Below, in pieces: positions 23,109-45,135 of a stretch of DNA of 64,000 bases. The stretch is from Candidatus Nomurabacteria bacterium GW2011_GWD2_36_14. GTDB lineage: Bacteria; Patescibacteriota; Minisyncoccia; Phycocordibacterales; UBA9973. Within the stretch, counting starts at the first letter, position 1, and each line of letters begins with the position of its first letter. The translations under genes were made by a program, and so were the position numbers. A model generated the notes under the pieces. The model saw only the letters and a program-made list of their open reading frames with translations. It was not told where the DNA came from and did not search any database. The stretch covers positions 3,744 through 67,743 of the forward strand of contig LBRL01000001.1 in NCBI GenBank assembly GCA_000991405.1, written 5' to 3'.

Positions 23109-23414
23109 ATGTTAAAGATAAGATTACAAAGAATAGGGCGCAAGAATGATCCAGCTTTTAGAGTACTTTTGACAGATTCTAAGAACTCAGCTAAGAGTGG
23201 TAAATTTAAAGAAATCTTGGGTTCATACAATCTAAAGAAAGGCGAAGTTATATTCAAGGCAGACCGCATCAAGCATTGGATAAGTGTTGGAGCTCAGACT
23301 TCAGATACAGTTCACAATTTCCTAGTTAGCCAGAAATTAATAGAAGGCAAGAAGAGAAACGTACTTTCGAAAAAGTCTCCAACTAAAGCTAAAAAAGAAC
23401 TTAAAAAAGCATAA
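23109..23414 (+). CDS. rpsP: 30S ribosomal protein S16
   Basis: MLKIRLQRIGRKNDPAFRV... is the bS16 N-terminus. The start was set at the ATG at 23109. Confidence 0.9.
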   Translation: MLKIRLQRIGRKNDPAFRVLLTDSKNSAKSGKFKEILGSYNLKKGEVIFKADRIKHWISVGAQTSDTVHNFLVSQKLIEGKKRNVLSKKSPTKAKKELKKA

Positions 23415-23417
23415 TTA

Positions 23418-23447
23418 AAATCCCCCAAGCCTTGCTTGGGGGATTTT
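23418..23447 (+). terminator. Terminator hairpin aaaatcccccaagc-cttg-cttgggggatttt
   Basis: A perfect 13-bp stem plus a T-run immediately after the rpsP stop. Confidence 0.7.
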
Positions 23448-23541
23448 ATGTTGCATAAGAAAAGCTCTATATGGTATGATTATAGTCAGCAGGAGTAGTC
23501 GGTACACTGCAGAAATTATGAATAATTACTAAATACATTAT

Positions 23542-31984: not shown

Positions 31985-33745
31985 ATGTCATCATCTGTTG
32001 AGAAAATCAAAGAAAGGCTTTCCATTGTTGATGTTATTTCTTCGTACATGCAAGTAGAACAGTCTGGTAAGAATTTTAAAGCGAAGTGCCCATTTCACAA
32101 TGAGAAGACACCTTCCTTTTTCATATCTGCCGACAGGGGGACTTACTATTGTTTTGGTTGCGGAGAGAAGGGCGACATATTCTCTTTTGTTCAGAAGTTT
32201 GAAGGTACTGACTTTATGGGAGCGCTCAAGCTCTTGGCGGAACGTGCCGGAGTGACTCTTGAGGCAAGGCCTAAAGATTCTAATGACAAAGAGAAGAAAG
32301 AACTTTATTATGAAATTCTAGAAGAAGCTACCAAGTTCTTCGAAAGTAATTTTGATAAAGAGCCAAAAGCTCGTGCATATCTTGTAAGTAGAGGTCTGAC
32401 AGATAATAGTATTAAAGATTTCAGAATTGGATATGTGAAAGATGAATGGAGATCTCTTTCTGACTATTTAATAGTCAAGGGTTATAAAATACAAGATTTG
32501 GAAATTGTTGGCTTAGTGAAGAAGTCTGAGAAAGGCACATATGACAGATTTCGTTCACGCATAATGTTTCCTATAAGTGATTCAAGCGGTAGAGTTATAG
32601 CTTTCTCTGGAAGAATTTTTAATAAAGATGATAAGGAAGAGGCCAAGTATTTAAATAGTCCTGATACTCCACTTTTCAATAAATCCAATGTATTATTCGG
32701 TATAGATAAGGCCAAGCTAGCCATAAGGAAGAGGGGTTATAGTATCGTAGTTGAAGGGCAGATGGATCTAATACTTTCTCATCAAGCAGACTTTACCAAT
32801 ACTGTGGCTGTGTCAGGCACGGCCTTTACAGACAGCACTGTAGATCAAGAATCCAAGATAAATAATCTAGGACTCATTCGTAGACTCTCTCCCAATATTA
32901 TTTTTGCTTATGACGGGGACTCTGCTGGTATCAGGGCCGCTAGTCGTTCAGCTATGATAGCCCTATCACTCGATATGCAAGTAAAAATAGCCAAATTGCC
33001 AGAGGGCAAGGATCCAGCAGATATTATAAAAGAGAACCCCGATGAATGGAAAGAAATTATTAAGAATTCTACAGATATTATTACTTTCCATGTAGATAGA
33101 ATTTGCAAGAATACCAACGACATAAGGCAAAGAGGTAAGCTTATCCGAGATGTTATATTTCCATTTTTAGTTATAATTAAGAGCTCTATAGACAAGTCTT
33201 CTTATATTTCTATTATCAATTCCAAGACGGGGATTCCTATAGACGCAATCATGGATGATTTCAAGTCTTATGAGAAGAATCATATAGTAGAGAGTAATAC
33301 AAAATTAGAGAAGAATATGCCAACCGGTAAGGATGAGTTTATTCCAAGGAGAGATAGCTTAGAGAAAAGGTTGTTTGGAATTATTTTCCTTCAAGATAAG
33401 AATGATATCGGAGTAGATAAGGAAAAGACCTTTTTATTACTCAAGGAAAAGATTGGAGAAGAAGAATTTAATAAAATATATGAAGCTCATTTGCCATTTG
33501 GAGACCTTCTTGCACAAGATATCGAAAGGTTGTATGGTAGTAATATTGAAGATATGAGTCGTCATTTAGATGAGTTGATTCTCAATCTAGAAGGGGAAAT
33601 ACTAGGAGAACGTTTGTATTTATTAAGAGACAAGATTAATCAACAGTCAAGTTCAAATGAAGACTTTGACCCAGGGCCTATACTTAAGGATATTCAAAAG
33701 ATAGGTGAACGTTTAGAAATAATTAAAAGTAATAGATCACAATAA
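31985..33745 (+). CDS. dnaG: DNA primase
   Basis: The CHC2 zinc finger is [14 protein letters not shown]...[11 protein letters not shown]. The Toprim block is VVEGQMDLI...DGDSAG. Confidence 0.9.
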
Positions 33746-35120: not shown

Positions 35121-35156
35121 CAAAACAATCTCCCCTAGGCAAGGCCCAGGGGAGAT
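35121..35156. terminator. Bidirectional terminator acaatctcccct-aggcaaggccc-aggggagattgt
   Basis: A 12-bp perfect stem with an A-run before and a T-run after. It lies between the convergent rpoD and dsbA-like genes. Confidence 0.65.
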
Positions 35157-35193
35157 TGTTTTTGATGTATTAAATTCTTAATTCCTAACTGTC

Positions 35194-37298: not shown

Positions 37299-38048
37299 AT
37301 GCATCAACACGAACCAAATGATTGGAAGAAATATGTGATAGTTTTGTTTATAACAACAACTATATTTATCACAGGACTATGGCTTTCGAATTATTTTAAT
37401 AACAAAAAAATAGATCAGCTTAAAAGCATAGAAGATAAAATTTCTTTAGATTTAATGTCCTCTGAAACACAATTTTCTCTCCTTCAAGAATTGTCTTGCA
37501 AAGATGTTTCAACAACAGTCTTGTCTTCTGAATTAAATTCTTTAGCTGAAAAAATTTCTTATAGTGAAAGTAATATGGGGAGTACTGACGATAATGTTAT
37601 TTCTTTGAAAAAATATTACTCTCTACTTGAGATAAAAGATTATTTATTAATGAAGAAGATTACTGAACGTTGTGGTCAGAAATCAATATTTGTCTTATAT
37701 TTCTACAAAAATGAAAAGTGTGATGATTGTACCAAGCAGGGCTATGTACTAACTTCACTTCGTGAAAAATATCCAAATCTTCGTGTTTATTCATTTGACT
37801 ATAATTTGGATCTTTCGGCTATCAGAGCCATGACTTCTATTTATAAAGTTCCAGATGATTTACCAGCTGTCGTCATAAATGGTAAGGTATATAGTGGTTT
37901 TAAAACGGTGGAAGAGATAGAGAAAACTTTTCCAGAGCTTGAGAGTATCAAGAAGTCAGAGGAAGTGGTTAAGCCTAAAACCTCAACAAAAGCAAAGGTT
38001 ACTGCTCCTATAACAACTTCAACAGTTGAGACAGTTAAGACGAATTAG
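37299..38048 (+). CDS. Membrane-anchored protein with a C-terminal glutaredoxin/thioredoxin-like domain
   Basis: It has an N-terminal transmembrane segment. The CDDC (CxxC) motif and LPAVVINGKVYSGF resemble the glutaredoxin vP.vfi.G motif. Confidence 0.45.
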   Translation: MHQHEPNDWKKYVIVLFITTTIFITGLWLSNYFNNKKIDQLKSIEDKISLDLMSSETQFSLLQELSCKDVSTTVLSSELNSLAEKISYSESNMGSTDDNVISLKKYYSLLEIKDYLLMKKITERCGQKSIFVLYFYKNEKCDDCTKQGYVLTSLREKYPNLRVYSFDYNLDLSAIRAMTSIYKVPDDLPAVVINGKVYSGFKTVEEIEKTFPELESIKKSEEVVKPKTSTKAKVTAPITTSTVETVKTN

Positions 38049-38055
38049 TACTGAA

Positions 38056-38140
38056 CCGGCATACGAGGAATCGTCACACATAATTTCTTGCAAACATAAT
38101 AGGGCCGGCAGACGAGGAATCGTCAGGCATAATTTTCTGG
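38056..38140 (+). repeat. Two ~34-bp direct repeats (ccggcatacgaggaatcgtcacacataatttct / ccggcagacgaggaatcgtcaggcataattttct) resembling the 3' end of the adjacent tRNA-Thr
   Basis: Read directly, at 38056-38090 and 38105-38140. Compare the tRNA 3' end on the + strand, gccggcacgaggattcgaa. Confidence 0.55.
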
Positions 38141-38283
38141 TGAAAATTTGCACGACCCTCATTCAGTAGAATGACTTACGTGTGCCTCCCGCCTTGTCTC
38201 ACGACACGATTTACTAATCGGTGGTCCGGCTTTCGAATCCTCGTGCCTAATAAAAAAATACCCAAAAGGGTATTTTTTTCTAG

Positions 38284-38356
38284 AGCCGGCACGAGGATTC
38301 GAACCCCGGACATCCACTTTACAAAAGTGGCGCTCTACCAACTGAGCTATGCCGGC
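38284..38356 (-). tRNA. tRNA-Thr (anticodon UGU)
   Basis: The reverse complement GCCGGCATAGCTCAGTTGGTAGAGCGCCACTTTTGTAAAGTGGATGTCCGGGGTTCGAATCCTCGTGCCGGCT folds as a cloverleaf. The anticodon loop is TTTGTAA and the T-loop is TTCGAAT. Confidence 0.85.
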
Positions 38357-38403
38357 TAAACATTTTAATAAAAACAAATTTCTTACTCAACTATACTAGC
38401 ATA

Positions 38404-38868
38404 TTATAGGATTTTATCAACTTCATTTGTTTCTTCACTGACTGGGGTTTCTACTGGTGTTTCTATTTTGTCTTCATGCTCCTTTTTAATCTTATCCTTA
38501 ACTTTCTTTATTTTTATTTTTGATTCAATCACGGCTCTTTGTATAAAGGAAATTTTCCTAGAGTCGGTTCCGTTTGTTTCTTTCCTAAAGAAGTTGTGTA
38601 TTTTAGGAAGTTTATTCTGGAACCAGATTTTTGTTTTTGTAGCAATCAGGTACCATACTTTCACAATAAACAAGACTACAGACTGAATTACATGCTTAGC
38701 CAAGAATAGGAATATCTTTTCAAAATATTTAAAGGATAGTTGTGGTTTAAATATTTCTGTATTCTCGTCAATTACCACTCTCTTTGTTCGAAGTTTCCAA
38801 TCACGAACTAGTAGCATTCCAAATGCGCTAATTATTGCTATGAAGAAAATGATAATAGTTAAAATCAT
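38404..38868 (-). CDS. Hypothetical membrane protein (N-terminal transmembrane segment, Lys/Glu-rich C-terminus)
   Basis: It is co-oriented with and directly upstream of tsf, and has a hydrophobic N-terminus. Confidence 0.35.
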   Translation of the reverse strand: MILTIIIFFIAIISAFGMLLVRDWKLRTKRVVIDENTEIFKPQLSFKYFEKIFLFLAKHVIQSVVLFIVKVWYLIATKTKIWFQNKLPKIHNFFRKETNGTDSRKISFIQRAVIESKIKIKKVKDKIKKEHEDKIETPVETPVSEETNEVDKIL

Positions 38869-38870
38869 AA

Positions 38871-39653
38871 TTAACCAATAGATTCATGAATGAAGCTTAC
38901 GAAAGTCGCACCCTTCTCTTTGAGTAGGTTGTCGATAGTTAGGTCAGGATTTTTAATAAATGGTTGATCCATCAAAGTTTGTTCTTTGAAGTATGTAGAT
39001 ATTTTACCATCGAGCATTTTCTTTTTTATCTCTTCGGGTTTGTCTGATTCTGATACTTCTTTTTCGAAGACTTCTATAACCTTCGCTTTATCTTCTTCTG
39101 TTATGTCATCTGCTTTTACAAAGGCAGGCTTCATAGCTGCTATGTGCATAGCTATATCTTTTGCAAGTTCTGTTGTTCCTCCTGTAAGTGTTACTATGAC
39201 AGCTCTTTTACTTCCGTGTACGTAGCTACCTAGAGTAGAACCAGTTATTAGCTCTACCTTTCCAAGTTCAATCTTTTCTCCAACTTTCTGAACCACAGGA
39301 TTTATGATATCTAGAGATTTTGCTTGTATAGCTTCTACTCCATCCTTCCAAGCTAGTTGTGCCAATTCGTTGGCGAGAGCTATAAAGTCAGCATTTCTAG
39401 CCACAAAGTCAGTCTCAGAATGAAGAGTAAGAAGTAAAGCTTTTCCTGTACCTTCAACTACCACAATGATACCATCGTGGGCTGTGCGGTCAGACTTCTT
39501 CATAGCGATACTGCTTGATTTCTTTTTAAGGATAATCAAGGCTTTCTCCATATCTCCTTCTGCTTCTTCAAGTGCATTTTTACATTGCATGACAGAGACA
39601 CCAGTTGCATCTCTTAATTCTTTGACTAATTCTGCGGTTATTTTTATAGACAT
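38871..39653 (-). CDS. tsf: Elongation factor Ts
   Basis: The N-terminal UBA-like ITAELVKELRDATGVSVMQCKNALEEAEGDMEKAL. Confidence 0.9.
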   Translation of the reverse strand: MSIKITAELVKELRDATGVSVMQCKNALEEAEGDMEKALIILKKKSSSIAMKKSDRTAHDGIIVVVEGTGKALLLTLHSETDFVARNADFIALANELAQLAWKDGVEAIQAKSLDIINPVVQKVGEKIELGKVELITGSTLGSYVHGSKRAVIVTLTGGTTELAKDIAMHIAAMKPAFVKADDITEEDKAKVIEVFEKEVSESDKPEEIKKKMLDGKISTYFKEQTLMDQPFIKNPDLTIDNLLKEKGATFVSFIHESIG

Positions 39654-39702
39654 GATTTTATTATAGATTGGTTGTATGACCTTAACAAATAATTTTTTTT
39701 AA

Positions 39703-40401
39703 CTACTTCTTATCTCCAGATACTCCTTTATTGTAAGCATTTTTGATTTGAGTCAAGAAGAAACTGATACTAGATACAGAGGCATCGTTGGCGATAATAG
39801 GGAATTCGGATTGCTTTATATTACAGTCTGTATTCATAACGGAAATAACAGGTAGATTCATTTTGTGAGCTTCTGTTACCGCGATGTGTTCTTTCTTAGG
39901 GTCAATTACGAACATTGCATCTGGAGTTTTGGTTATACCTGTAAGACCTTGGAAGTTCTTTGTCATGTCATCCATTTCTCGGTCTATTAGTAGTCTTTCT
40001 TTCTTAGTATATTTATCAAGGCCACCTTTTTCTTTTTGATCACGTAGGTCTAGAAGTTTGGTAATACGTTTTTTAATTTCAGGGAAGTTTGTAAGAGCAC
40101 CTCCAACCCAACGCTCAGATACATAAGGCATGTTTAAAGATAAAGCAGTCTCTATTATTTGCTGGCGAGCTTCTGCCTTAGTTCCAACGAAAAGGATAGT
40201 CTTACCAGCTTGGGCAAGCTCTGTAACTTTTTCTATTGCTTTATTGAAGAGTTCATTAGTCTTCTCAATATTTATAATATCTACTCCGTTCTTCGTTGCG
40301 AAGATATAAGGGGTAGTAGATGGGTGGCGACGACTCTTGGAGTACCCGTAGTGAGTACCATTTGCAAACATTTCTTCTATAACACTATTTTGTGTAGTCA
40401 T
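39703..40401 (-). CDS. rpsB: 30S ribosomal protein S2
   Basis: MFANGTHYGYSKSRRHPSTTPYIF... and the usual rpsB-tsf order. Confidence 0.9.
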   Translation of the reverse strand: MTTQNSVIEEMFANGTHYGYSKSRRHPSTTPYIFATKNGVDIINIEKTNELFNKAIEKVTELAQAGKTILFVGTKAEARQQIIETALSLNMPYVSERWVGGALTNFPEIKKRITKLLDLRDQKEKGGLDKYTKKERLLIDREMDDMTKNFQGLTGITKTPDAMFVIDPKKEHIAVTEAHKMNLPVISVMNTDCNIKQSEFPIIANDASVSSISFFLTQIKNAYNKGVSGDKK

Positions 40402-40596
40402 ATTGTTTTTTGTCTAAGGCGAACCTATAGACTTTATGGTTAATTAATTATAATACTAACCGTTTTTAAGCATTCCAGCTCGCCCGACCATAGGTCTAGG
40501 GCTTATTTACAAAGGTCTTTTAAACAAAAAAGTCCTTCACGGAAAGTACCCACATAATACCAGAAAAAGCATTATTTTGCAAATAGAATTTTCACT

Positions 40597-40623
40597 AATT
40601 CTACTAGACAGGACCTAGTCGAT
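40597..40623 (+). repeat. Degenerate copy (22/27) of the REP-like hairpin ccgactagg-caaga-cctagtcgg
   Basis: tctactagacaggacctagtcgatttt, compared with the canonical copies at 42031 and 42737. Confidence 0.5.
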
Positions 40624-40661
40624 TTTTGGTTTTTTATATTTAAAAGTGCTAATATATTGGA

Positions 40662-42041
40662 ATGGAAGGATTAAATAAAAATACTCCAAAAGAAACAATC
40701 TCAGAAAATAACAGTAATCTTAAAAAGAAAGAAAAACAAATTTCAATTATTGAAATTGATGGTATTAAAATTGAGGCTCAAAAAGAATATTTTGAATATC
40801 CTGAATATATACAAAAAGAAAGTGGTGTTATTGGATATGATAGAACTATAATTGATGACAAATCATTATTTAATATTATAAACAATATATGTAAAAATAA
40901 GGGCATTGATCTTTTAAATGAGGGAGCTTTTGATTTCCATTCTTTGAAAGAAAAGATTATAAATCAATTTTCTACTTTTGTCTTAGACGAAGATCATCGT
41001 CTCAATGCAACTCCTGAATTGATTGAAATGTTTGGTGGAATGAAAAAAGAAGTACCTTCTATTTTTAGAAAAGTAGAAGAAATAATGAGAGAGTTACTCA
41101 AAGGTTTACTTTTAACATTTTCTAATGGAGAATATCCAAATAAGTGCTTTACTCACCAAATGGGTGCAGATTATAATAGAAATCGACGAGATGAATTTAA
41201 ACAAGATCTTGTGGAGAATAAATTTTTTGTTCATAAAATTTATGATATTGATTATGTAAAAGAACAAACCGACAAAAAAGGATTTGATCATACACTATTT
41301 AATGCTACTGGAGGTCTTGAATCATGGAATACTATAAAATCAGATTTGGTAATTTATGACAATACAGGGGAAGAAGTTGAGGCTGGAATGATTGCTAAGC
41401 TTGGTTCCCCTAAATATTTTGAAGGCATAAAAAATGGAAGTTTGTTTGCGTGTACTCCTAAATCAGGCTTTAATGTTGATACTGGAAAATTTTTCTATTC
41501 GCATGAAGGTGGGTTAACAGATCCAGTACCATCTTTTGGATTTTCAATGAAAAATAATATTTTTTTTCAAGAATATTTAAATAAATCATTAGATATATAC
41601 ACAAAAGAAATTAAAGGAATAGATTGGAAAGAATTAGAAGGTGGGGGTATTAACTCTATCGTTCAAGAATTAGTTTTGAGTGATTCTACGGTGCAAGAAA
41701 TAATTTATAAAAAACAAGGAGATAAAGAATATATTAAGGTTGAAAAATATGATGATTCTATTATAAGAGCAGTTAAAAACGTAGTAGAAAAAATAGAAGA
41801 AGATCACGGTATAAAATTGAATGATTACTTAATAAGTTCAGATGTTGTGGGGGATATAATTAGTTCCATGAATTCTAGAAGTGATCGTGAGAAACGCCTT
41901 CCTGTTTTTATAGGTAAAGATGATATTCCACAACTTTGTTGGGGGCACGCTTCTTTCTGTCATTTTATGAGTTCTAAAGGGTTCAATTTTATTAGATTCA
42001 AACATGCAGATCATTTGCCAAATAAAGATAAAACCGACTAG
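40662..42041 (+). CDS. Hypothetical protein (459 aa, no recognisable domain). Its stop codon lies inside a REP-like hairpin
   Basis: It is a long ORF with balanced composition. No motif is recognised. It ends with the TAG embedded in the hairpin at 42031-42060. Confidence 0.5.
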   Translation: MEGLNKNTPKETISENNSNLKKKEKQISIIEIDGIKIEAQKEYFEYPEYIQKESGVIGYDRTIIDDKSLFNIINNICKNKGIDLLNEGAFDFHSLKEKIINQFSTFVLDEDHRLNATPELIEMFGGMKKEVPSIFRKVEEIMRELLKGLLLTFSNGEYPNKCFTHQMGADYNRNRRDEFKQDLVENKFFVHKIYDIDYVKEQTDKKGFDHTLFNATGGLESWNTIKSDLVIYDNTGEEVEAGMIAKLGSPKYFEGIKNGSLFACTPKSGFNVDTGKFFYSHEGGLTDPVPSFGFSMKNNIFFQEYLNKSLDIYTKEIKGIDWKELEGGGINSIVQELVLSDSTVQEIIYKKQGDKEYIKVEKYDDSIIRAVKNVVEKIEEDHGIKLNDYLISSDVVGDIISSMNSRSDREKRLPVFIGKDDIPQLCWGHASFCHFMSSKGFNFIRFKHADHLPNKDKTD

Positions 42042-42060
42042 GCAAGACCTAGTCGGTTTT
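42031..42060. repeat. REP-like hairpin aaaaccgactagg-caaga-cctagtcggtttt (copy 1)
   Basis: A 9-bp perfect stem with a 5-nt loop, and A/T runs on both sides. It is identical to 42737-42768. Confidence 0.85.
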
Positions 42061-42061
42061 G

Positions 42062-42718
42062 TTATTTATTATAATTAAGCCATTCAAAAATTTCTTTTGT
42101 GAATGATTTTTTGTTTGGAAAATATTTTGGAAAGGTTTCTTTATTTAAAATATTGTTTTGAATTCTTTCTATCCCCAAATAATCAAGATAACTACTATAT
42201 TGGTAATTGTATAAATATTCTAAGGTTTCTTTTTTATTTTTAACCCCGACTTCTTTCCAATCTTTTTGTATAAGTTTTATTGGATTTAAGTGAATATATG
42301 AAAATAAGTATTTTAAATAACGCTCTTCACTTACATGCTCTGATTTAAATTTACCTTCAAAAAGTCCACCAGTATGTTTGTATTTTTTATTATAATACAT
42401 TACATATGCAGTAGTTAATTTTTGCATAAATTTGCTTATACTGCCATCTTCTATCTGTGTTATAAGAATATGAAAATGATTAGGCATAATACAAAAAGAT
42501 CCTATTGATACTAACTGCTTGCCCCTTTCAAAATCATATGGGCTTTCTTTTACACCAAGACCAAACATTCTGAAATTATTTTCAGAATTACAAGCAAACA
42601 TAAGACCCATAAAATGAAAACAATCCTCATTGTCATGAAAGATTTTTTGTTTACTATTACCACGATTAAATACATGATAATACTCATTATTAACTAGGTT
42701 TACCTTTCTAATAGACAT
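42062..42718 (-). CDS. IS200/IS605-family Y1 (HuH) transposase of the REP-associated tyrosine transposase (RAYT) type
   Basis: YHVFNRG, the HuH motif MPNHFHILI, and the catalytic Tyr region YLFSYIHLNPIK. The gene is bracketed by identical hairpins. Confidence 0.7.
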   Translation of the reverse strand: MSIRKVNLVNNEYYHVFNRGNSKQKIFHDNEDCFHFMGLMFACNSENNFRMFGLGVKESPYDFERGKQLVSIGSFCIMPNHFHILITQIEDGSISKFMQKLTTAYVMYYNKKYKHTGGLFEGKFKSEHVSEERYLKYLFSYIHLNPIKLIQKDWKEVGVKNKKETLEYLYNYQYSSYLDYLGIERIQNNILNKETFPKYFPNKKSFTKEIFEWLNYNK

Positions 42719-42736
42719 AATTATATTATATACTTA

Positions 42737-42768
42737 AAAACCGACTAGGCAAGACCTAGTCGGTTTTT
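42737..42768. repeat. REP-like hairpin aaaaccgactagg-caaga-cctagtcgg-tttttt (copy 2)
   Basis: It is identical to copy 1 and lies directly upstream of proS. Confidence 0.85.
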
Positions 42769-42801
42769 TGTTTTGACCCAAAGTGATTTTTAGGGTAGTA
42801 T

Positions 42802-44067
42802 GTGGGTATGAAGCAATCACAACTATTTACTAGAACAAAGAAGGAAAGTCCAGCGGATGAAGTATCTCTAAATGCTGAACTCCTTATAAGAGCAGGTTTT
42901 ATAAACAAAGAAATGGCAGGGGTATATTCTTATCTACCTCTTGGTCTTCGTGTTTTGAAGAAGATAGAAAGCATTATTAGAGAAGAAATGGACAATATTG
43001 GTGGTACAGAGATGAGGACAAGTGTCATTCAAAATAAAGAAGTTTGGGAGAAATCAAACAGATGGGATGATGAAGTGGTAGATAATTGGTTTAAAACAAA
43101 ATTAAAAAATGGAACAGAGGTTGGGTTATCTTTTACAAACGAAGAAGCTTATTCAAATATTTTGAAACATTACATAAATTCTTATAAAGATTTACCTATA
43201 TATCCTTATGATTTTAAAAATATCTTTAGAAACGAAGCTCGAAGTAAGTCTGGAATTCTAAGAGGAAGAGAGTTTTATTGGAAAGCGTTATATTCTTTCT
43301 CTAAGGATGAGAAGGAACACAATGAATTTTATGAGAAGGCTAAGGAAGCTTATAAGAACATCTTTAAAAGAGCAGGAATAGGTCATCTTACTTATCTTAC
43401 TTTTGCTTCTGGTGGAAGCTTCTCAAAATTCTCTCATGAATTCCAGACTATAACTTCTGCAGGTGAAGACACTATTTATGTCGATGAAAACAAGGGAATA
43501 GCTATCAATAAAGAAGTTTATAATGATGAGGTTCTTGAAAGTCTTGGTGTTAAAAAAGATGATTTAGTTGAAAATAAGGCTGTAGAAGTAGGAAATATAT
43601 TTTCACTTGGAACAAAATTTTCAGCACCTTTTGATTTGAAATACAAAGATGAAAATGGAGAGGAGAAGCTAGTCATAATGGGTAGTTATGGTATTGGATT
43701 GGGTAGACTAATGGGTACTGTAGTAGAAGTCCTATCTGACGACAAGGGTATCATCTGGCCAGAAAGCATTGCTCCTTTTAAGGTTCATTTATTGTTACTT
43801 GGTGGAGATGAAAATGTTAAGAATGAAGCAGGGGGTCTTTACAATAAACTCAAAGAAAAAAATATTGAAGTTCTATTTGACGATCGTAGCGATATAAGTG
43901 CTGGAGAGAAATTTGCTGATTCTGATCTTATTGGTATCCCTTATAGAATAGTTATTTCAAAACGAAGTCTAGCTGATGGAGGATACGAAGTTAAGAAGCG
44001 CACAGAGTCCAGTGGTAAAATAATAAATATTGATGAACTAATTAGTTTACTAGAAACTAAAAACTAG
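42802..44067 (+). CDS. proS: Prolyl-tRNA synthetase (short form without an editing domain)
   Basis: The N-terminal KQSQLFTRTKKESPADEVSLNAELLIRAGFI...GVYSYLPLGLRVLKKIESIIREEM matches the ProRS N-terminus, and the class II core follows. Confidence 0.7.
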   Translation: MGMKQSQLFTRTKKESPADEVSLNAELLIRAGFINKEMAGVYSYLPLGLRVLKKIESIIREEMDNIGGTEMRTSVIQNKEVWEKSNRWDDEVVDNWFKTKLKNGTEVGLSFTNEEAYSNILKHYINSYKDLPIYPYDFKNIFRNEARSKSGILRGREFYWKALYSFSKDEKEHNEFYEKAKEAYKNIFKRAGIGHLTYLTFASGGSFSKFSHEFQTITSAGEDTIYVDENKGIAINKEVYNDEVLESLGVKKDDLVENKAVEVGNIFSLGTKFSAPFDLKYKDENGEEKLVIMGSYGIGLGRLMGTVVEVLSDDKGIIWPESIAPFKVHLLLLGGDENVKNEAGGLYNKLKEKNIEVLFDDRSDISAGEKFADSDLIGIPYRIVISKRSLADGGYEVKKRTESSGKIINIDELISLLETKN

Positions 44068-44088
44068 TCACTAGAACCTAATTTATAT

Positions 44089-45135
44089 ATGTTTAAAAAA
44101 TTTTATCAAATGTTTTCTAATGATATCGGTATCGACCTAGGGACTGCCAACACCTTGGTGTATTTGAAGGGGCACGGTATCGTCATCAACGAACCTTCCG
44201 TGGTAGTTGTGAATCAGAAGACAGGTCAGATTGTAGCTGTCGGTGCCGAAGCCAAGCAGATGCTTGGACGTACCCCAGGACACGTGCGAGCTATTCGACC
44301 GATTATTGATGGAGTTATTTCCGACTTTGAAGTTACAGAAGAAATGCTTTCCTATCTTATAGGCAAGGCAGAAAAGATTTCCAAGAAGTTCATTCGTCCT
44401 CGCGTTGTTCTAGGTGTGCCAACTGGTATCACCAACGTAGAGATACGTGCCGTAGAGGACGCCGCTCTCTCAGCTGGTGCCCGCGAAGTTTATATTATCG
44501 AAGAGCCAATGTCTGCCGCTATAGGTATACGTCTACCAGTCAAGGAAGCCATGGGTTCGGTCATAGTTGATATCGGTGGAGGTACGACCGATGTGGCTGT
44601 CATATCTCTCTCGGGAGTTGTTCGCTCAAAGAATTTGAAAATTGCTGGAGATCTTCTCAATACCAATATTATAAATTACATGAAAGATGAATTTAAGTTA
44701 CTCATTGGAGAGAGAACTGCTGAAGGTGTGAAGATTGCCATAGGTTCCGCTATTGAAGGTGAACCCATGGAAGCTGAAGTTAGAGGCCGAGACCTAGTCA
44801 CTGGTCTACCTCGTCAAGTAATAGTTACAGACTCCGATATACGTGAAGCCATTCTACCTTCTATCATTAGCTTAGTAGATGGAGTGAAGGAAGTACTAGA
44901 GACTACTCCCCCAGAAATACTCTCCGACATAATGTACAGAGGTCTTGTTCTTTCGGGTGGTGGGGCTCTTATCAGAGGCTTGGATACTTTACTTCAGCAA
45001 ACCCTTAAGATTCCTATATATATAGCCGAAGATCCTCTCACCGCAGTAGCTCGTGGTACCGGTGTGGTACTTGATGACTTTGAAAATTACCAAGAAGTTT
45101 TATTAAACACAGATGATTCATCAGTTCCGAGATAA
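44089..45135 (+). CDS. mreB: Rod-shape determining actin homolog MreB
   Basis: DIGIDLGTANTLVY, VIVDIGGGTTDVAV, LSGGGALIRGLD. Confidence 0.95.
   Translation: MFKKFYQMFSNDIGIDLGTANTLVYLKGHGIVINEPSVVVVNQKTGQIVAVGAEAKQMLGRTPGHVRAIRPIIDGVISDFEVTEEMLSYLIGKAEKISKKFIRPRVVLGVPTGITNVEIRAVEDAALSAGAREVYIIEEPMSAAIGIRLPVKEAMGSVIVDIGGGTTDVAVISLSGVVRSKNLKIAGDLLNTNIINYMKDEFKLLIGERTAEGVKIAIGSAIEGEPMEAEVRGRDLVTGLPRQVIVTDSDIREAILPSIISLVDGVKEVLETTPPEILSDIMYRGLVLSGGGALIRGLDTLLQQTLKIPIYIAEDPLTAVARGTGVVLDDFENYQEVLLNTDDSSVPR

Follow-up and report, generated by a model that had tools for sequence, protein, structure and literature searches.

A single-copy class-2 HuH/Y1 gene with probable cognate hairpins at a fixed chromosomal site in Nomurabacteria-type genomes

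Analysis of a 64-kb stretch of a Candidatus Nomurabacteria genome (hereafter the window) uncovered a gene for a 218-aa HuH/Y1 protein that lies between two identical hairpins. We consider it probable that this locus is a domesticated, single-copy class-2 HuH/Y1 gene with its own cognate palindromes, similar to REPtrons and TIRtrons and without a dispersed REP population. The class is known, and the variant, a REPtron/TIRtron-like domesticated Y1 module in CPR, is new. As originally predicted from the letters, the unit sits between rpsB and proS; rpsB/tsf adjoin one end and proS/mreB the other. Its DNA has the lowest G+C of the surroundings (0.27-0.30). The same DNA is also present in the Nomurabacteria-type CPR assembly GCA_000991485.1. 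The features of the locus are as follows.

40600-40622, no strand assigned: hairpin relic H0, TCTACTAGACAGGACCTAGTCGA (18 of 23 bases match; 15.6 bits)
40662-42041, + strand: 459-aa orphan ORF in a variable slot between H0 and H1; no family match
42030-42060, no strand assigned: hairpin H1, 3′ of Y1, between the convergent 459-aa ORF and Y1 (family model, 44.2 bits)
42062-42718, − strand: class-2 HuH/Y1 (RAYT/TIRYT-like) gene, 218 aa (Pfam Y1_Tnp, 39.3 bits)
42725-42752, − strand: predicted Y1 promoter (consensus scan)
42736-42768, no strand assigned: hairpin H2, 5′ of Y1, between the divergent Y1 and proS (family model, 44.6 bits)

The Y1 protein resembles RAYTs in motifs and predicted fold

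The original prediction described the 218-aa protein as a Y1 transposase with HuH (HFH) and Tyr motifs, and homology searches agree. The Pfam Y1_Tnp profile matches at 39.3 bits, relative to a gathering cut-off of 23, the HuH motif is N80-H81-F82-H83 (encoded around 42470-42481), and the catalytic Tyr141 lies within YIHLNP (around 42296-42298). The protein also contains F97-M-Q99 and an SS motif at residues 175-176 (S175-S176). In the AF2 model (pLDDT 83.6), residues from about 155 to 218 form a helical C-terminal tail, in which Pfam finds no match, including to DnaA-like or HTH domains. Its relatives in the protein collection number more than 5000, and among 31 homologues that are 65-88% identical, residues N80, H81, F82, H83, Y141, H143, L144, and N145 are invariant, while I142 and P146 are at least 90% conserved.

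When searched against the PDB, a sequence profile of the Y1 family reached only the ISDra2 TnpA (E about 0.9) and not the E. coli RAYT. As a profile this weak in the PDB could not place the protein, fold comparison was needed. The best PDB match of the model is 4er8, the E. coli TnpA-REP bound to REP (probability 1.0; TM 0.64, normalised to the target), which ranks above the IS608 and ISDra2 TnpAs. The motifs NHFH, YIHLNP, and SS, along with the protein length, fit subclass 2.1 when compared by eye with Table 1 of PMC6006769. PHROGs and PADLOC contain no match for Y1. Together, the motifs and the modelled fold support a class-2 (Y---NP) TnpA-Y1 of the RAYT kind and not a minimal IS200 TnpA. 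The narrower RAYT identity that had been proposed stands in part: the Y---NP motif and a fold nearest to 4er8 speak for it, but the match to the NCBIfam equivalog REP_Tyr_transpos (NF047646) scores 43.9 bits, below the cut-off of 80.

Y1 is inherited in place and strongly constrained

The exact Y1 protein is found on 24 contigs, in a single genomic context in all of them, and the window contains no second Y1. Every long locus whose Y1 is at least 79% identical retains the gene order proS-Y1-slot-rpsB, apart from locus L012, in which the unit sits at the far side of proS. More distant orthologue groups occupy other contexts, each with its own conserved synteny, and the rank order of Y1 identities follows that of proS. 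RAYTs are typically chromosomal genes of single or low copy number with mainly vertical inheritance (Bertels 2017), and Y1 shares this trait, as seen from its one context in 24 contigs and its conserved synteny. A check for viral origin recovered only one match, 25% identical, in 2.9 million viral contigs.

Nonsynonymous divergence of Y1 is low (dN 0.11-0.15) versus that of rpsB, tsf, and proS in the same pairs (0.28-0.42); dS is saturated or nearly so. Y1 has a dS of 1.0 in the L014 pair, where its neighbours exceed 2, so the high identity of Y1 could in part reflect exchange between lineages. These comparisons show that Nomurabacteria-type genomes inherit Y1 at one fixed place in the chromosome and, as judged from sequence, that it has an intact HuH/Tyr catalytic centre under strong purifying selection and is more conserved than ribosomal protein S2.

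Two identical hairpins bracket Y1, and a relic lies by the rpsB promoter

Three hairpin copies had been reported, two identical and one degenerate, with the identical pair directly bracketing the minus-strand HuH/Y1 gene, and this arrangement is confirmed (42030-42060 and 42736-42768). The window contains exactly two copies of a 23-nt core, CCGACTAGGCAAGACCTAGTCGG, both of them + strand (42034-42056 and 42741-42763), while 0 copies are expected in shuffled sequence; the third hairpin, H0, matches the core at 18 of 23 bases. Including the A/T runs, H1 and H2 are identical over 31 nt and have the same orientation. Their stems are 13-14 bp long (H2 has a 14-bp stem and a 5-nt loop), and the H2 apex reads AGG-TCTTG-CCT on the Y1 strand. 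As single-stranded DNA, each folds at about −14 to −15 kcal/mol (z about −8), and both qualify as short extragenic palindromes with a stable hairpin, a trait of REPs. With its flanking A-run and T-run, H1 resembles a bidirectional terminator, and its 5′ arm contains the TAG stop codon of the 459-aa ORF (42039-42041), as had been noticed in the letters. An Rfam search of 38000-45000 with E up to 1 returned one tRNA and, for the hairpins, sub-threshold noise only.

H0 is located directly upstream of the rpsB −35 box, 40 nt ahead of the 459-aa ORF, and folds no better than shuffled sequences (z −0.25 and −1.25 on the two strands). It is a real relic, because better-preserved copies are found at the same place by the rpsB promoter in relatives (32.7 bits in L009 and 31.4 bits in L092); the L071 counterpart is a relic as well.

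The upstream hairpin overlaps the predicted promoter of Y1. A predicted −35 box, TTGCCT (42752-42747), falls within the apex and 3′ arm of H2, followed 16 nt on by a predicted −10 box, TATAAT (42730-42725), and 6 nt later by the ATG, so that the Y1 mRNA would be leaderless. The layout TTGCCT-15..18 nt-TAnnnT-4..9 nt-ATG recurs in 22 of 31 distinct orthologous upstream regions.

Hairpins with an invariant apex and covarying stems accompany Y1 orthologues

Flanking hairpins on both sides of Y1 were found at about 30 related CPR loci, and in an unbiased search of the flanks, nearly all orthologues with at least 57% identity proved to have the same apex on either side. The 11-nt apex, AGG-YCTTG-CCT, is invariant across related loci, whereas the basal stem covaries, differing between species and loci and matching between the two flanks of one locus. 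In an alignment of 56 distinct hairpins from the flanks of Y1 orthologues, double changes occur at 8 of 12 stem pairs, and the covariation score is 0.63 versus 0.17 in shuffles. Paired cells make up 93% of the alignment, a value inflated by the choice of hairpins on core and pairing, versus 29-48% with a slid partner. The closest relatives, L012 and L071, contain TTGCTAGG in the hairpins seen beside Y1. The H0 relic of L071, unlike its Y1-adjacent hairpins, retains the older ACTAGG type. In loci that have lost Y1 (L092 and L097), the 3′ arm of H1 has decayed, and a paralogous Y1 clade has its own, different flanking palindrome. By this comparative reading, the flanking hairpins are cognate, protein-linked palindromes and not chance terminators, and the proposal that they belong to the Y1 protein is borne out by the shared apex at the flanks of its orthologues and by the covarying stems at about 30 loci.

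The upstream hairpin is almost fixed in its orientation relative to Y1, while that of the downstream hairpin varies by locus and is inverted in many. A downstream hairpin found in either orientation is awkward for a strictly strand-specific two-end reaction. Mismatches within the stems include 14 G.T and 12 A.C pairs, without strand bias, so no working strand is indicated. Neither a conserved guide or cleavage motif nor a conserved asymmetric flank was found beside the 56 aligned hairpins. REPIN-like inverted doublets flank Y1 in L048, and doublets also occur in L034 and L024.

It had also been suggested that the hairpins double as terminators. This fits the window, where H1 has a terminator shape on both strands and H2 on the + strand only, but it does not extend to the family as a conserved property, given that a T-rich tail follows only 18 of the 56 hairpins. 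Third hairpins at other loci were considered as brackets of cargo, and this idea was dropped because the gene bracketed in L018 is an ordinary one, encoding a class II fructose-bisphosphate aldolase; extra hairpin copies can thus simply punctuate ordinary genes.

The hairpins are concentrated at Y1

REPs are dispersed in extragenic space, usually at more than 100 copies per genome (Nunvar 2010), and the hairpin foot of canonical REPs carries a 5′ GT[AG]G tetranucleotide. The original prediction took the hairpins for a dispersed family of this kind, and the copy count that it called for, made over the 64-kb window and a related whole MAG, does not support it: exact copies were found only at Y1. 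The window contains no further exact copy, and no same-stem copy even at 7 mismatches. When the GTDB species set was searched with a pattern that allowed any loop, the related MAG yielded only two copies, both flanking Y1. The other four matches to the pattern, in three Fructobacillus genomes and the MAG ELA257, have different apexes or hosts. The ELA257 match has a different loop and no adjoining Y1 gene and was set aside as chance or a terminator, while the Fructobacillus matches have no Y1 relative in their loci and were judged to be chance from the host alone.

Across 26 loci, about 60 family matches lie within 1.5 kb of Y1, versus 2-3 in the 140 kb beyond, an approximately 40-fold concentration, and 228 kb of loci that carry only paralogous Y1 contain 0. 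The foot of the hairpins is an A-run or AAC, and GT[AG]G is absent. Copies in the window are single and in direct orientation, with no inverted REPIN or BIME pair.

Two remote hairpins of the window match the family model.

35124-35160, − strand: hairpin with the same apex, GGGCCTTGCCT (36.4 bits; −19.5 kcal/mol)
23414-23450, + strand: hairpin with a related apex, AAGCCTTGCTT (34.8 bits; −16 kcal/mol)

The hairpin at 35124-35160 has an unrelated stem and lies between convergent rpoD and dsbA-like genes; at the syntenic site, L092 has a different hairpin. It is possibly a sparse family member, or else a terminator whose apex arose by convergence. The hairpin at 23414-23450 is located at the 3′ end of a 114-aa ORF and is doubtful as a family member. 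Beyond the 64 kb covered, the genome may contain a sparse, dispersed population. Little weight is given to a hairpin-like 24-mer inside dnaG (32249-32285), considered as an in-frame insertion of REP type; its linker has the length seen in 18 relatives, and 9 of the bases that match code for the conserved xLE motif.

The 459-aa gene is a resident of a hypervariable slot

The 459-aa ORF had been described as a passenger gene with no recognisable domain. The latter description holds, as the protein has no match in Pfam, NCBIfam, PHROGs, or PADLOC. A search for relatives, proposed at the outset, did recover homologues, including some at sites without Y1. An exhaustive profile search of 1.84 billion proteins gave 176 representatives, and the family, which is of Nomurabacteria type, has a conserved N-terminal motif, FEYPExIQKETGILGYER, and a conserved C-terminal motif, IPQLxWGHA...KFKHxDHLP. 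Ten distant relatives contain no significant Pfam domain, with one sub-threshold ABM match in one of them. Structure prediction, likewise proposed, produced a model (pLDDT 76.6, pTM 0.80) with no fold match in the PDB or BFVD.

The 459-aa protein is only 30-42% identical where neighbouring housekeeping proteins are mostly 74-89% identical. Homologues occur at the rpsB-proS site without Y1 (L092 and L097) and elsewhere without Y1 or hairpins (L095, L099, and L101). Conversely, Y1 is found at the rpsB-proS site without the 459-aa gene in L012, L014, and L015. In other loci, the slot contains proS itself (L012), small ORFs (L071 and L015), about 650 bp of uncharacterised sequence (L014), or an unrelated 428-aa ORF (L009), which was rejected as a diverged 459-aa homologue (hhalign probability 0.4%). 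Because the gene and Y1 each occur at the site without the other, the 459-aa gene is not a passenger; it is a separate, fast-evolving, lineage-specific resident of a hypervariable slot and not part of the Y1 module.

Relation to known HuH/Y1 systems

REPtrons (E. coli yafM, 4er8; Nunvar 2010, Ton-Hoang 2012, Quentin 2018 PMC6006769) share with this locus a class-2 HuH/Y1 protein with Y---NP, a single-copy, vertically inherited, domesticated-looking gene, and clade-specific short palindromes on both sides. The modelled fold of Y1 is nearest to 4er8, and the loop-determined specificity for REPs parallels the invariant apex seen here. REPtrons differ in their dispersed, high-copy REPs and the GT[AG]G foot, neither of which was found here in 64 kb or in the related MAG. 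The flanking pair here is single and direct, the protein is longer (218 aa), has a helical tail, and falls below the NCBIfam equivalog cut-off, and the host is a reduced CPR genome, of a group unsampled in published surveys.

Subclass 2.1 (Bertels group 1) is characterised by an SS tail and the motifs NH[YF]H, FQ/W[EQ], and Y[IV]HLNP; its proteins have a median length of 238 aa, and it was reported to be without REP-like structures near the gene (PMC6006769). Proteins of subclass 2.1, or TIRYTs, have a C-terminal HTH-like domain (Bac_DnaA_C, HTH_23, or HTH_28). TIRYT genes predominate in species without REPs, and the repeats at their flanks often lie outside any genome-wide family, some being self-complementary (Di Nocera 2013, PMC3733652). 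Y1 shares NH[YF]H, Y[IV]HLNP, SS, and a length near 238 aa, its membership being read from motifs only. Many TIRtron repeats have GGGGWSAS in common, whereas the repeats here are perfect hairpins with the AGG-YCTTG-CCT apex, and the window pair is in direct orientation.

The TnpA of IS200 is about 150 aa long with Y---Q and occurs in near-identical multiple copies with a patchy distribution (PMC6006769), and none of these properties is true here. What IS200 does share is a unit of roughly 0.7 kb with a Y1 gene between hairpins, which in the window are both on the same strand. The end hairpin of IS200 also has transcriptional roles, and in this respect the two systems are apparently alike.

A working model and its alternatives

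For the preferred reading, a domesticated Y1 gene with its own palindromes, we propose the following mechanism. By analogy with the E. coli TnpA-REP and the IS608 TnpA, the protein would bind the hairpin as folded single-stranded DNA, recognising its loop and closing pairs and not the stem sequence; for TnpA-REP on small perfect-palindrome REPs, loop positions and not stems are the specific determinants (PMC8266576). The protein could cut and rejoin DNA at the hairpin, and this activity, or hairpin-templated conversion, would keep both flanking copies identical, while H0, which would not be re-copied, would decay. As the upstream hairpin gives the predicted −35 box, hairpin formation or protein binding would couple the expression of Y1 to its own site. 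The genome is AT-rich, and the copies with A/T flanks may also separate Y1, the 459-aa gene, and proS from one another as insulators or bidirectional terminators.

A different activity, in which Y1 and the hairpins form a single-strand recombination module that exchanges genes in the slot, integron-like or IS608-like at a fixed site, appears improbable to us. It would explain why unrelated ORFs occupy the slot between the same H0 and H1 in sister species whose housekeeping genes are about 80% identical, why the Y1-adjacent hairpins are identical while H0 fossilises, and why Y1 is under stronger constraint than ribosomal protein S2 when the genome offers hardly any repeats to mobilise. We give an equally slim chance to a strict REP-RAYT system, in which the hairpins would belong to a genome-wide, RAYT-disseminated REP/REPIN population with this locus as its REPtron. 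A class-2 gene with its fold nearest to a RAYT and cognate palindromes on its flanks would be expected there, and the two further window hairpins with a shared apex and other stems (36.4 and 34.8 bits), as well as the REPIN-like doublets in L048, L034, and L024, could be taken as traces of such a population. However, no same-stem copy exists in 64 kb at up to 7 mismatches, the related MAG has only two copies, and only 2-3 family matches fall in 140 kb off Y1; the GT[AG]G foot is missing, the window copies are single and direct, and the NCBIfam score is 43.9 bits against a cut-off of 80. It is likewise very unlikely that the locus is an active or recently dead IS of the IS200/IS605 type, organised as hairpin-tnpA-hairpin and perhaps extended by a passenger to H0. 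The protein has Y---NP, not Y---Q, and is 218 aa long; the gene is single-copy in one context, with conserved synteny and identity ranks that agree with proS; and its dN is below that of ribosomal and translation genes. Moreover, many loci have the downstream hairpin inverted, a TnpB-type domain is absent from the 459-aa protein, whose gene and Y1 occur independently, and the family is practically absent from viral contigs. In favour of an IS are an IS200-sized spacing of about 730 bp between two identical, same-orientation hairpins, the placement of the L012 unit across proS, the other contexts of distant orthologues, and a local G+C that is the lowest of the area (0.27-0.30).

Ordinary regulatory DNA, in the form of locally duplicated terminators or of a palindromic, double-stranded operator to which HuH chemistry would be irrelevant, is an unlikely explanation, even though several observations fit it. 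With their A and T runs, both H1 and H2 receive terminator scores, H1 lies between convergent genes, and the apex holds the predicted −35 box of Y1 at a conserved spacing. An operator could serve, for example, autoregulation through the C-terminal tail of Y1, palindromic operators likewise evolve symmetrically, and the upstream copy is almost fixed in orientation while the downstream copy occurs either way. Yet H2 and H0 lie between divergent genes, where transcripts do not end, and of the 56 hairpins of the family no more than 18 are followed by a T-rich tail. The stems vary freely and remain complementary, which argues for intramolecular pairing rather than base-specific contacts. The downstream copy keeps the same apex though no promoter is needed there, every Y1 clade has its own palindrome, and the catalytic residues are invariant, which suggests that the chemistry of Y1 is under selection.

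Class-2 Y1 RAYTs are usually proposed to spread or maintain REP/REPIN populations. Here, Y1 is retained in reduced CPR genomes with essentially only two or three cognate hairpins, at its own locus. If this is true genome-wide, the selected function cannot be the upkeep of a large repeat population and would act at or from the flanks of the gene; candidates are self-regulation, local recombination, and ssDNA processing at replication. Subclass 2.1 had no flanking structures in published surveys, which overlooked a large clade where they do occur. Minimal as it is, with a single gene and a pair of 31-nt hairpins that share an invariant 11-nt apex, the locus would make a convenient in vitro model of hairpin recognition by this superfamily.

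Locus layout and the Y1 protein

Between rpsB and proS the window carries a 218-aa HuH/Y1 gene (hereafter Y1) bracketed by two identical hairpins, H1 downstream and H2 upstream, with a third, decayed copy (H0) close to rpsB and a 459-aa ORF in the variable interval, or slot, between H0 and H1.

Features of the rpsB-proS interval, from reading of the sequence and, for genes, of the ORFs
39703-40401, minus strand: rpsB
40600-40622: H0, degenerate palindrome (18 of 23 core bases matched)
40662-42041, plus strand: 459-aa ORF
42030-42060: H1, perfect palindrome
42062-42718, minus strand: Y1, 218-aa ORF
42736-42768: H2, palindrome identical to H1
From 42802/42808, plus strand: proS

The 23-nt hairpin core occurs exactly twice in the 64 kb window, both times on the plus strand, against a chance expectation of none, and H0 is the sole further match when up to seven mismatches are allowed. 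H1 and H2 have folding energies of -14 to -15 kcal/mol (z ~ -8), while the hairpin fold is gone from H0; the 459-aa ORF ends with a TAG codon inside the 5′ arm of H1. The exact core pair, its folding and the degenerate H0 confirm the layout of hairpins, Y1 and 459-aa ORF described in the original prediction. The same DNA is also present in Nomurabacteria-type CPR assemblies (e.g., GCA_000991485.1), and the exact 218-aa protein has one identical neighbourhood in 24 of 24 contigs read. Nearby, a tRNA gene (38284-38356, minus strand; Rfam tRNA, 70 bits) lies between a 154-aa ORF downstream of tsf and a 249-aa ORF.

Searches with protein profiles upheld the predicted Y1 transposase identity, with a score above the gathering threshold of Pfam Y1_Tnp; for NCBIfam REP_Tyr_transpos the protein reached 43.9 bits and missed the cut-off of 80. 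The Y---NP signature marks it as a class 2 member of the TnpA-Y1 superfamily, and its NHFH, YIHLNP and SS (S175-S176) motifs and its length fit subclass 2.1 as defined in Table 1 of PMC6006769, a subclass equivalent to Bertels group 1 and including the TIRYTs (PMC6006769). More than 5000 relatives were found, the closest 120 of which are 65-88% identical and hosted by Nomurabacteria and Paceibacterota; N80-H81-F82-H83, Y141, H143 and N145 are invariant in 31 of the closest relatives. The top PDB match of the AlphaFold model (pLDDT 83.6) is 4er8, the E. coli TnpA-REP with REP bound, ranking ahead of the IS608, ISDra2 and IS200 TnpAs. A sequence profile of the Y1 family searched against PDB did not reach 4er8.

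The flanking hairpins co-vary with Y1

The best hairpin was sought in the 110 nt on either side of each Y1 gene in 80 metagenomic loci encoding Y1 relatives, without input from the window's sequence. In nearly all orthologues at least 57% identical, the upstream and downstream hairpins share the apex AGG-(T/C)CTTG-CCT. The basal 6-9 bp vary among loci (CCGACT, TTGCT, CTGCA, GTACA, GAGCT, TCCTG and others), with complementarity kept and the same sequence in both flanks of any one locus. Across 56 distinct aligned hairpins, nine bases in the middle of the apex (GG-CTTGCCT, besides the variable Y) are fixed, and the A of AGG is kept in at least 90%. Compensatory double changes occur at 8 of 12 stem pairs, and the covariation score is 0.63 versus 0.17 in shuffles. 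Paired cells amount to 93%, versus 29-48% with the partner slid, a figure inflated by the hairpins having been picked partly by pairing, which leaves pair-type diversity unaffected.

A covariance model applied to 26 distinct loci gave ~60 matches within 1.5 kb of Y1 and only 2-3 across the remaining 140 kb, and none in 228 kb of loci with only paralogous Y1 genes. This paralogous clade (L014:2112-2816 and loci L059-L091; 33-39% identity, ~220-230 aa), present in some of the same genomes as Y1, is flanked by a palindrome of its own, TGTCCAAAGC-tcg-GCTTTGGACA, with TTGACA within the arm. The apex drifts once Y1 identity falls below ~57% (e.g., TCTGA, TCAGA); the flanks of one locus (L048) are inverted, REPIN-like hairpin doublets; and in two loci that have lost Y1 (L092 and L097) the 3′ arm of H1 is decayed.

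The two identical hairpins could in principle reflect chance duplication of a terminator, an explanation ruled out by the combination of apex conservation, covarying stems, concentration at Y1 and clade-specific palindromes. The pattern is that of co-evolution as known for RAYTs and their REPs. Together with the class 2 signature and the fold match to 4er8, it shows the original prediction to have been right in proposing a RAYT-type enzyme with cognate hairpins. Loop-specific, stem-tolerant recognition has been demonstrated experimentally for small REPs (PMC8266576) and suits the invariant apex well as a model.

Stem identity also points to concerted change of the flanking pair. Locus L012 is nearer the window than L009 by every protein compared, yet the window shares stem CCGACTAGG with L009, while stem TTGCTAGG is found in both flanking hairpins of L012 and in the single one on the truncated contig of its near-twin L071. 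In L071 the H0 relic, located at the corresponding spot beside the rpsB promoter, retains the older ACTAGG type. We infer that the Y1-adjacent pair was re-copied or homogenised as the third copy decayed. We take this as an indirect sign that the hairpins undergo an active process, which would be either Y1-catalysed strand transfer or hairpin-templated conversion.

Predicted promoter and terminator roles of the hairpins

Read on the Y1 strand, TTGCCT within the H2 apex is followed by 16 nt, TATAAT, 6 nt and the ATG. Orthologues share this layout (TTGCCT-15..18 nt-TAnnnT-4..9 nt-ATG) in 22 of their 31 distinct upstream regions, and the upstream hairpin copy is nearly always oriented promoter-wise, whereas the downstream copy may lie either way. 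Because layout and upstream orientation are conserved, the upstream hairpin very likely supplies the -35 box of a predicted leaderless Y1 promoter. The proS -35 box directly adjoins H2.

The suggestion that the hairpins double as terminators is consistent with the window, where both H1 and H2 are bordered by runs of A and T and score like terminators, but not as a property of the family: only 18 of 56 hairpins have a T-rich tail, so termination appears to be a local bonus rather than a conserved function.

Predicted -10 boxes ~6-9 nt ahead of the start codons of proS (42773-42810) and Y1 (42718-42752) suggest leaderless mRNAs in this organism. The rpsB 5′ UTR (40402-40556, minus strand) is strongly conserved in six Nomurabacteria-type loci (the window, L009, L012, L071, L092 and L097), with a long-range helix (TTCCGTGAGG ... 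ACGGA) and inner hairpins. Searched against Rfam up to E = 1 it gives no match, and it is a candidate for an S2 autoregulatory leader not described before.

A hairpin population largely limited to its gene

The original prediction of a dispersed REP family was not borne out: no same-stem copy lies beyond the locus in 64 kb, and the GT[AG]G foot is absent from the 56 aligned hairpins. In a scan of GTDB (one genome per species, fixed stems, any loop), the hairpin occurred in one CPR genome only, the MAG of L009, where there are just two copies, each beside Y1; the scan's four remaining matches were unrelated. A classical REP family is therefore not supported by the sequences surveyed. Two strong window hairpins (35124-35160, between convergent rpoD and dsbA-like genes, and 23414-23450) have the same or a similar apex and unrelated stems, and the site in L092 syntenic with the former carries a different hairpin. 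The genome may hold a sparse population of hairpins with diverged stems, roughly one per 30-50 kb. A weak family-model match lies in dnaG (32249-32285, minus strand), where 24 nt in a variable linker of DNA primase are identical to a Y1-flanking hairpin of locus L043 (TCTTTAGGCCTTGCCTCAAGAGTC). The linker has the same length in 18 relatives, and nine of the matching bases encode a conserved xLE motif; the stretch may match by chance or descend from an ancient in-frame copy of the hairpin.

Gene and hairpins are arranged as in a REPtron (PMC6006769; PMC2817692), and the closest cases are TIRtrons with their TIRYT genes (PMC3733652), which involve class-2 Y1 genes in REP-less species and flanking repeats that are sometimes self-complementary and fall outside large families (PMC3733652). 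Unlike subclass 2.1 as published, which is described without flanking structures, the window Y1 has flanking hairpins, and these lack the GTAG foot of canonical REPs and the GGGGWSAS motif of many TIRYT repeats. Further departures from the published picture are that hairpins of this kind hardly occur away from the gene and that the hairpin apex is also a predicted promoter -35 box. The host, too, differs from those of published surveys in being a CPR bacterium; surveys of TnpA-Y1/RAYT genes make no mention of CPR bacteria, and our literature search turned up no publication that treats RAYTs in Patescibacteria. The main value of Y1 and its hairpins is as a minimal system, and the locus is an argument that domesticated Y1 enzymes may be under selection for something other than the maintenance of a large repeat population.

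Inheritance of Y1 and variability of the adjacent slot

The order proS-Y1-slot-rpsB is found in loci with Y1 at least 79% identical and long enough to judge, the exception being the closest relative, L012 (4468-7996), where Y1 and its hairpins lie between an archaeal/eukaryote-type ProRS gene (ProRS-C_1 domain) and a bacterial-type one. Each of these ProRS genes is preceded by the same ~40-nt promoter stretch. Among more distant orthologues, synteny is conserved within groups and differs between them. The identity ranking of Y1 is that of proS, and Y1 is 79-81% identical versus 53-55% for S2, 47-56% for EF-Ts and 60-66% for ProRS, with dN of 0.11-0.15 versus 0.28-0.42 for these neighbours and dS at or near saturation. 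In one pair the Y1 dS (1.0) is below that of the neighbours, so some lateral exchange between lineages may have occurred. Viral contigs contain practically no members of the Y1 family.

The 459-aa protein has no match in Pfam, NCBIfam, PHROGs or PADLOC, and its family counts only 176 representatives among 1.84 billion proteins; ten distant members gave no significant Pfam domain (ABM sub-threshold in one). Neither PDB nor BFVD yielded a fold matching its structure model, which is fairly confident (pTM 0.80). Conserved blocks lie at the N-terminus (FEYPExIQKETGILGYER) and C-terminus (IPQLxWGHA...KFKHxDHLP), and H165, H429, H448 and W427 are invariant. Members in the window, L092 and L097 are 30-42% identical, compared with mostly 74-89% for housekeeping neighbours, which points to very fast, or diversifying, evolution.

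This gene had been taken for a passenger of the Y1 unit, a view contradicted in both directions: homologues occur without Y1 at the same rpsB-proS site (L092, L097) and at other sites with neither Y1 nor hairpins (L095, L099, L101), and L012, L014 and L015 have Y1 but lack the 459-aa gene. The slot of L009 instead holds an unrelated 428-aa ORF. From H1 to the rpsB promoter the slot is strikingly variable among sister species, from which one could argue, at low probability, that the Y1-hairpin module promotes cassette turnover there. At the position of Y1, the loci L092 (7452-8160) and L097 (6490-7190), from two related species, carry a gene for a 163-aa winged-HTH and Cas2-like protein (PaaX_M/CRISPR_Cas2) with relic hairpins. 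With its flanking ~25-nt direct repeats (TTTTACCCAGCT(T/A)CTGCTATCGC), this gene has the appearance of a further small cassette at this hot spot.
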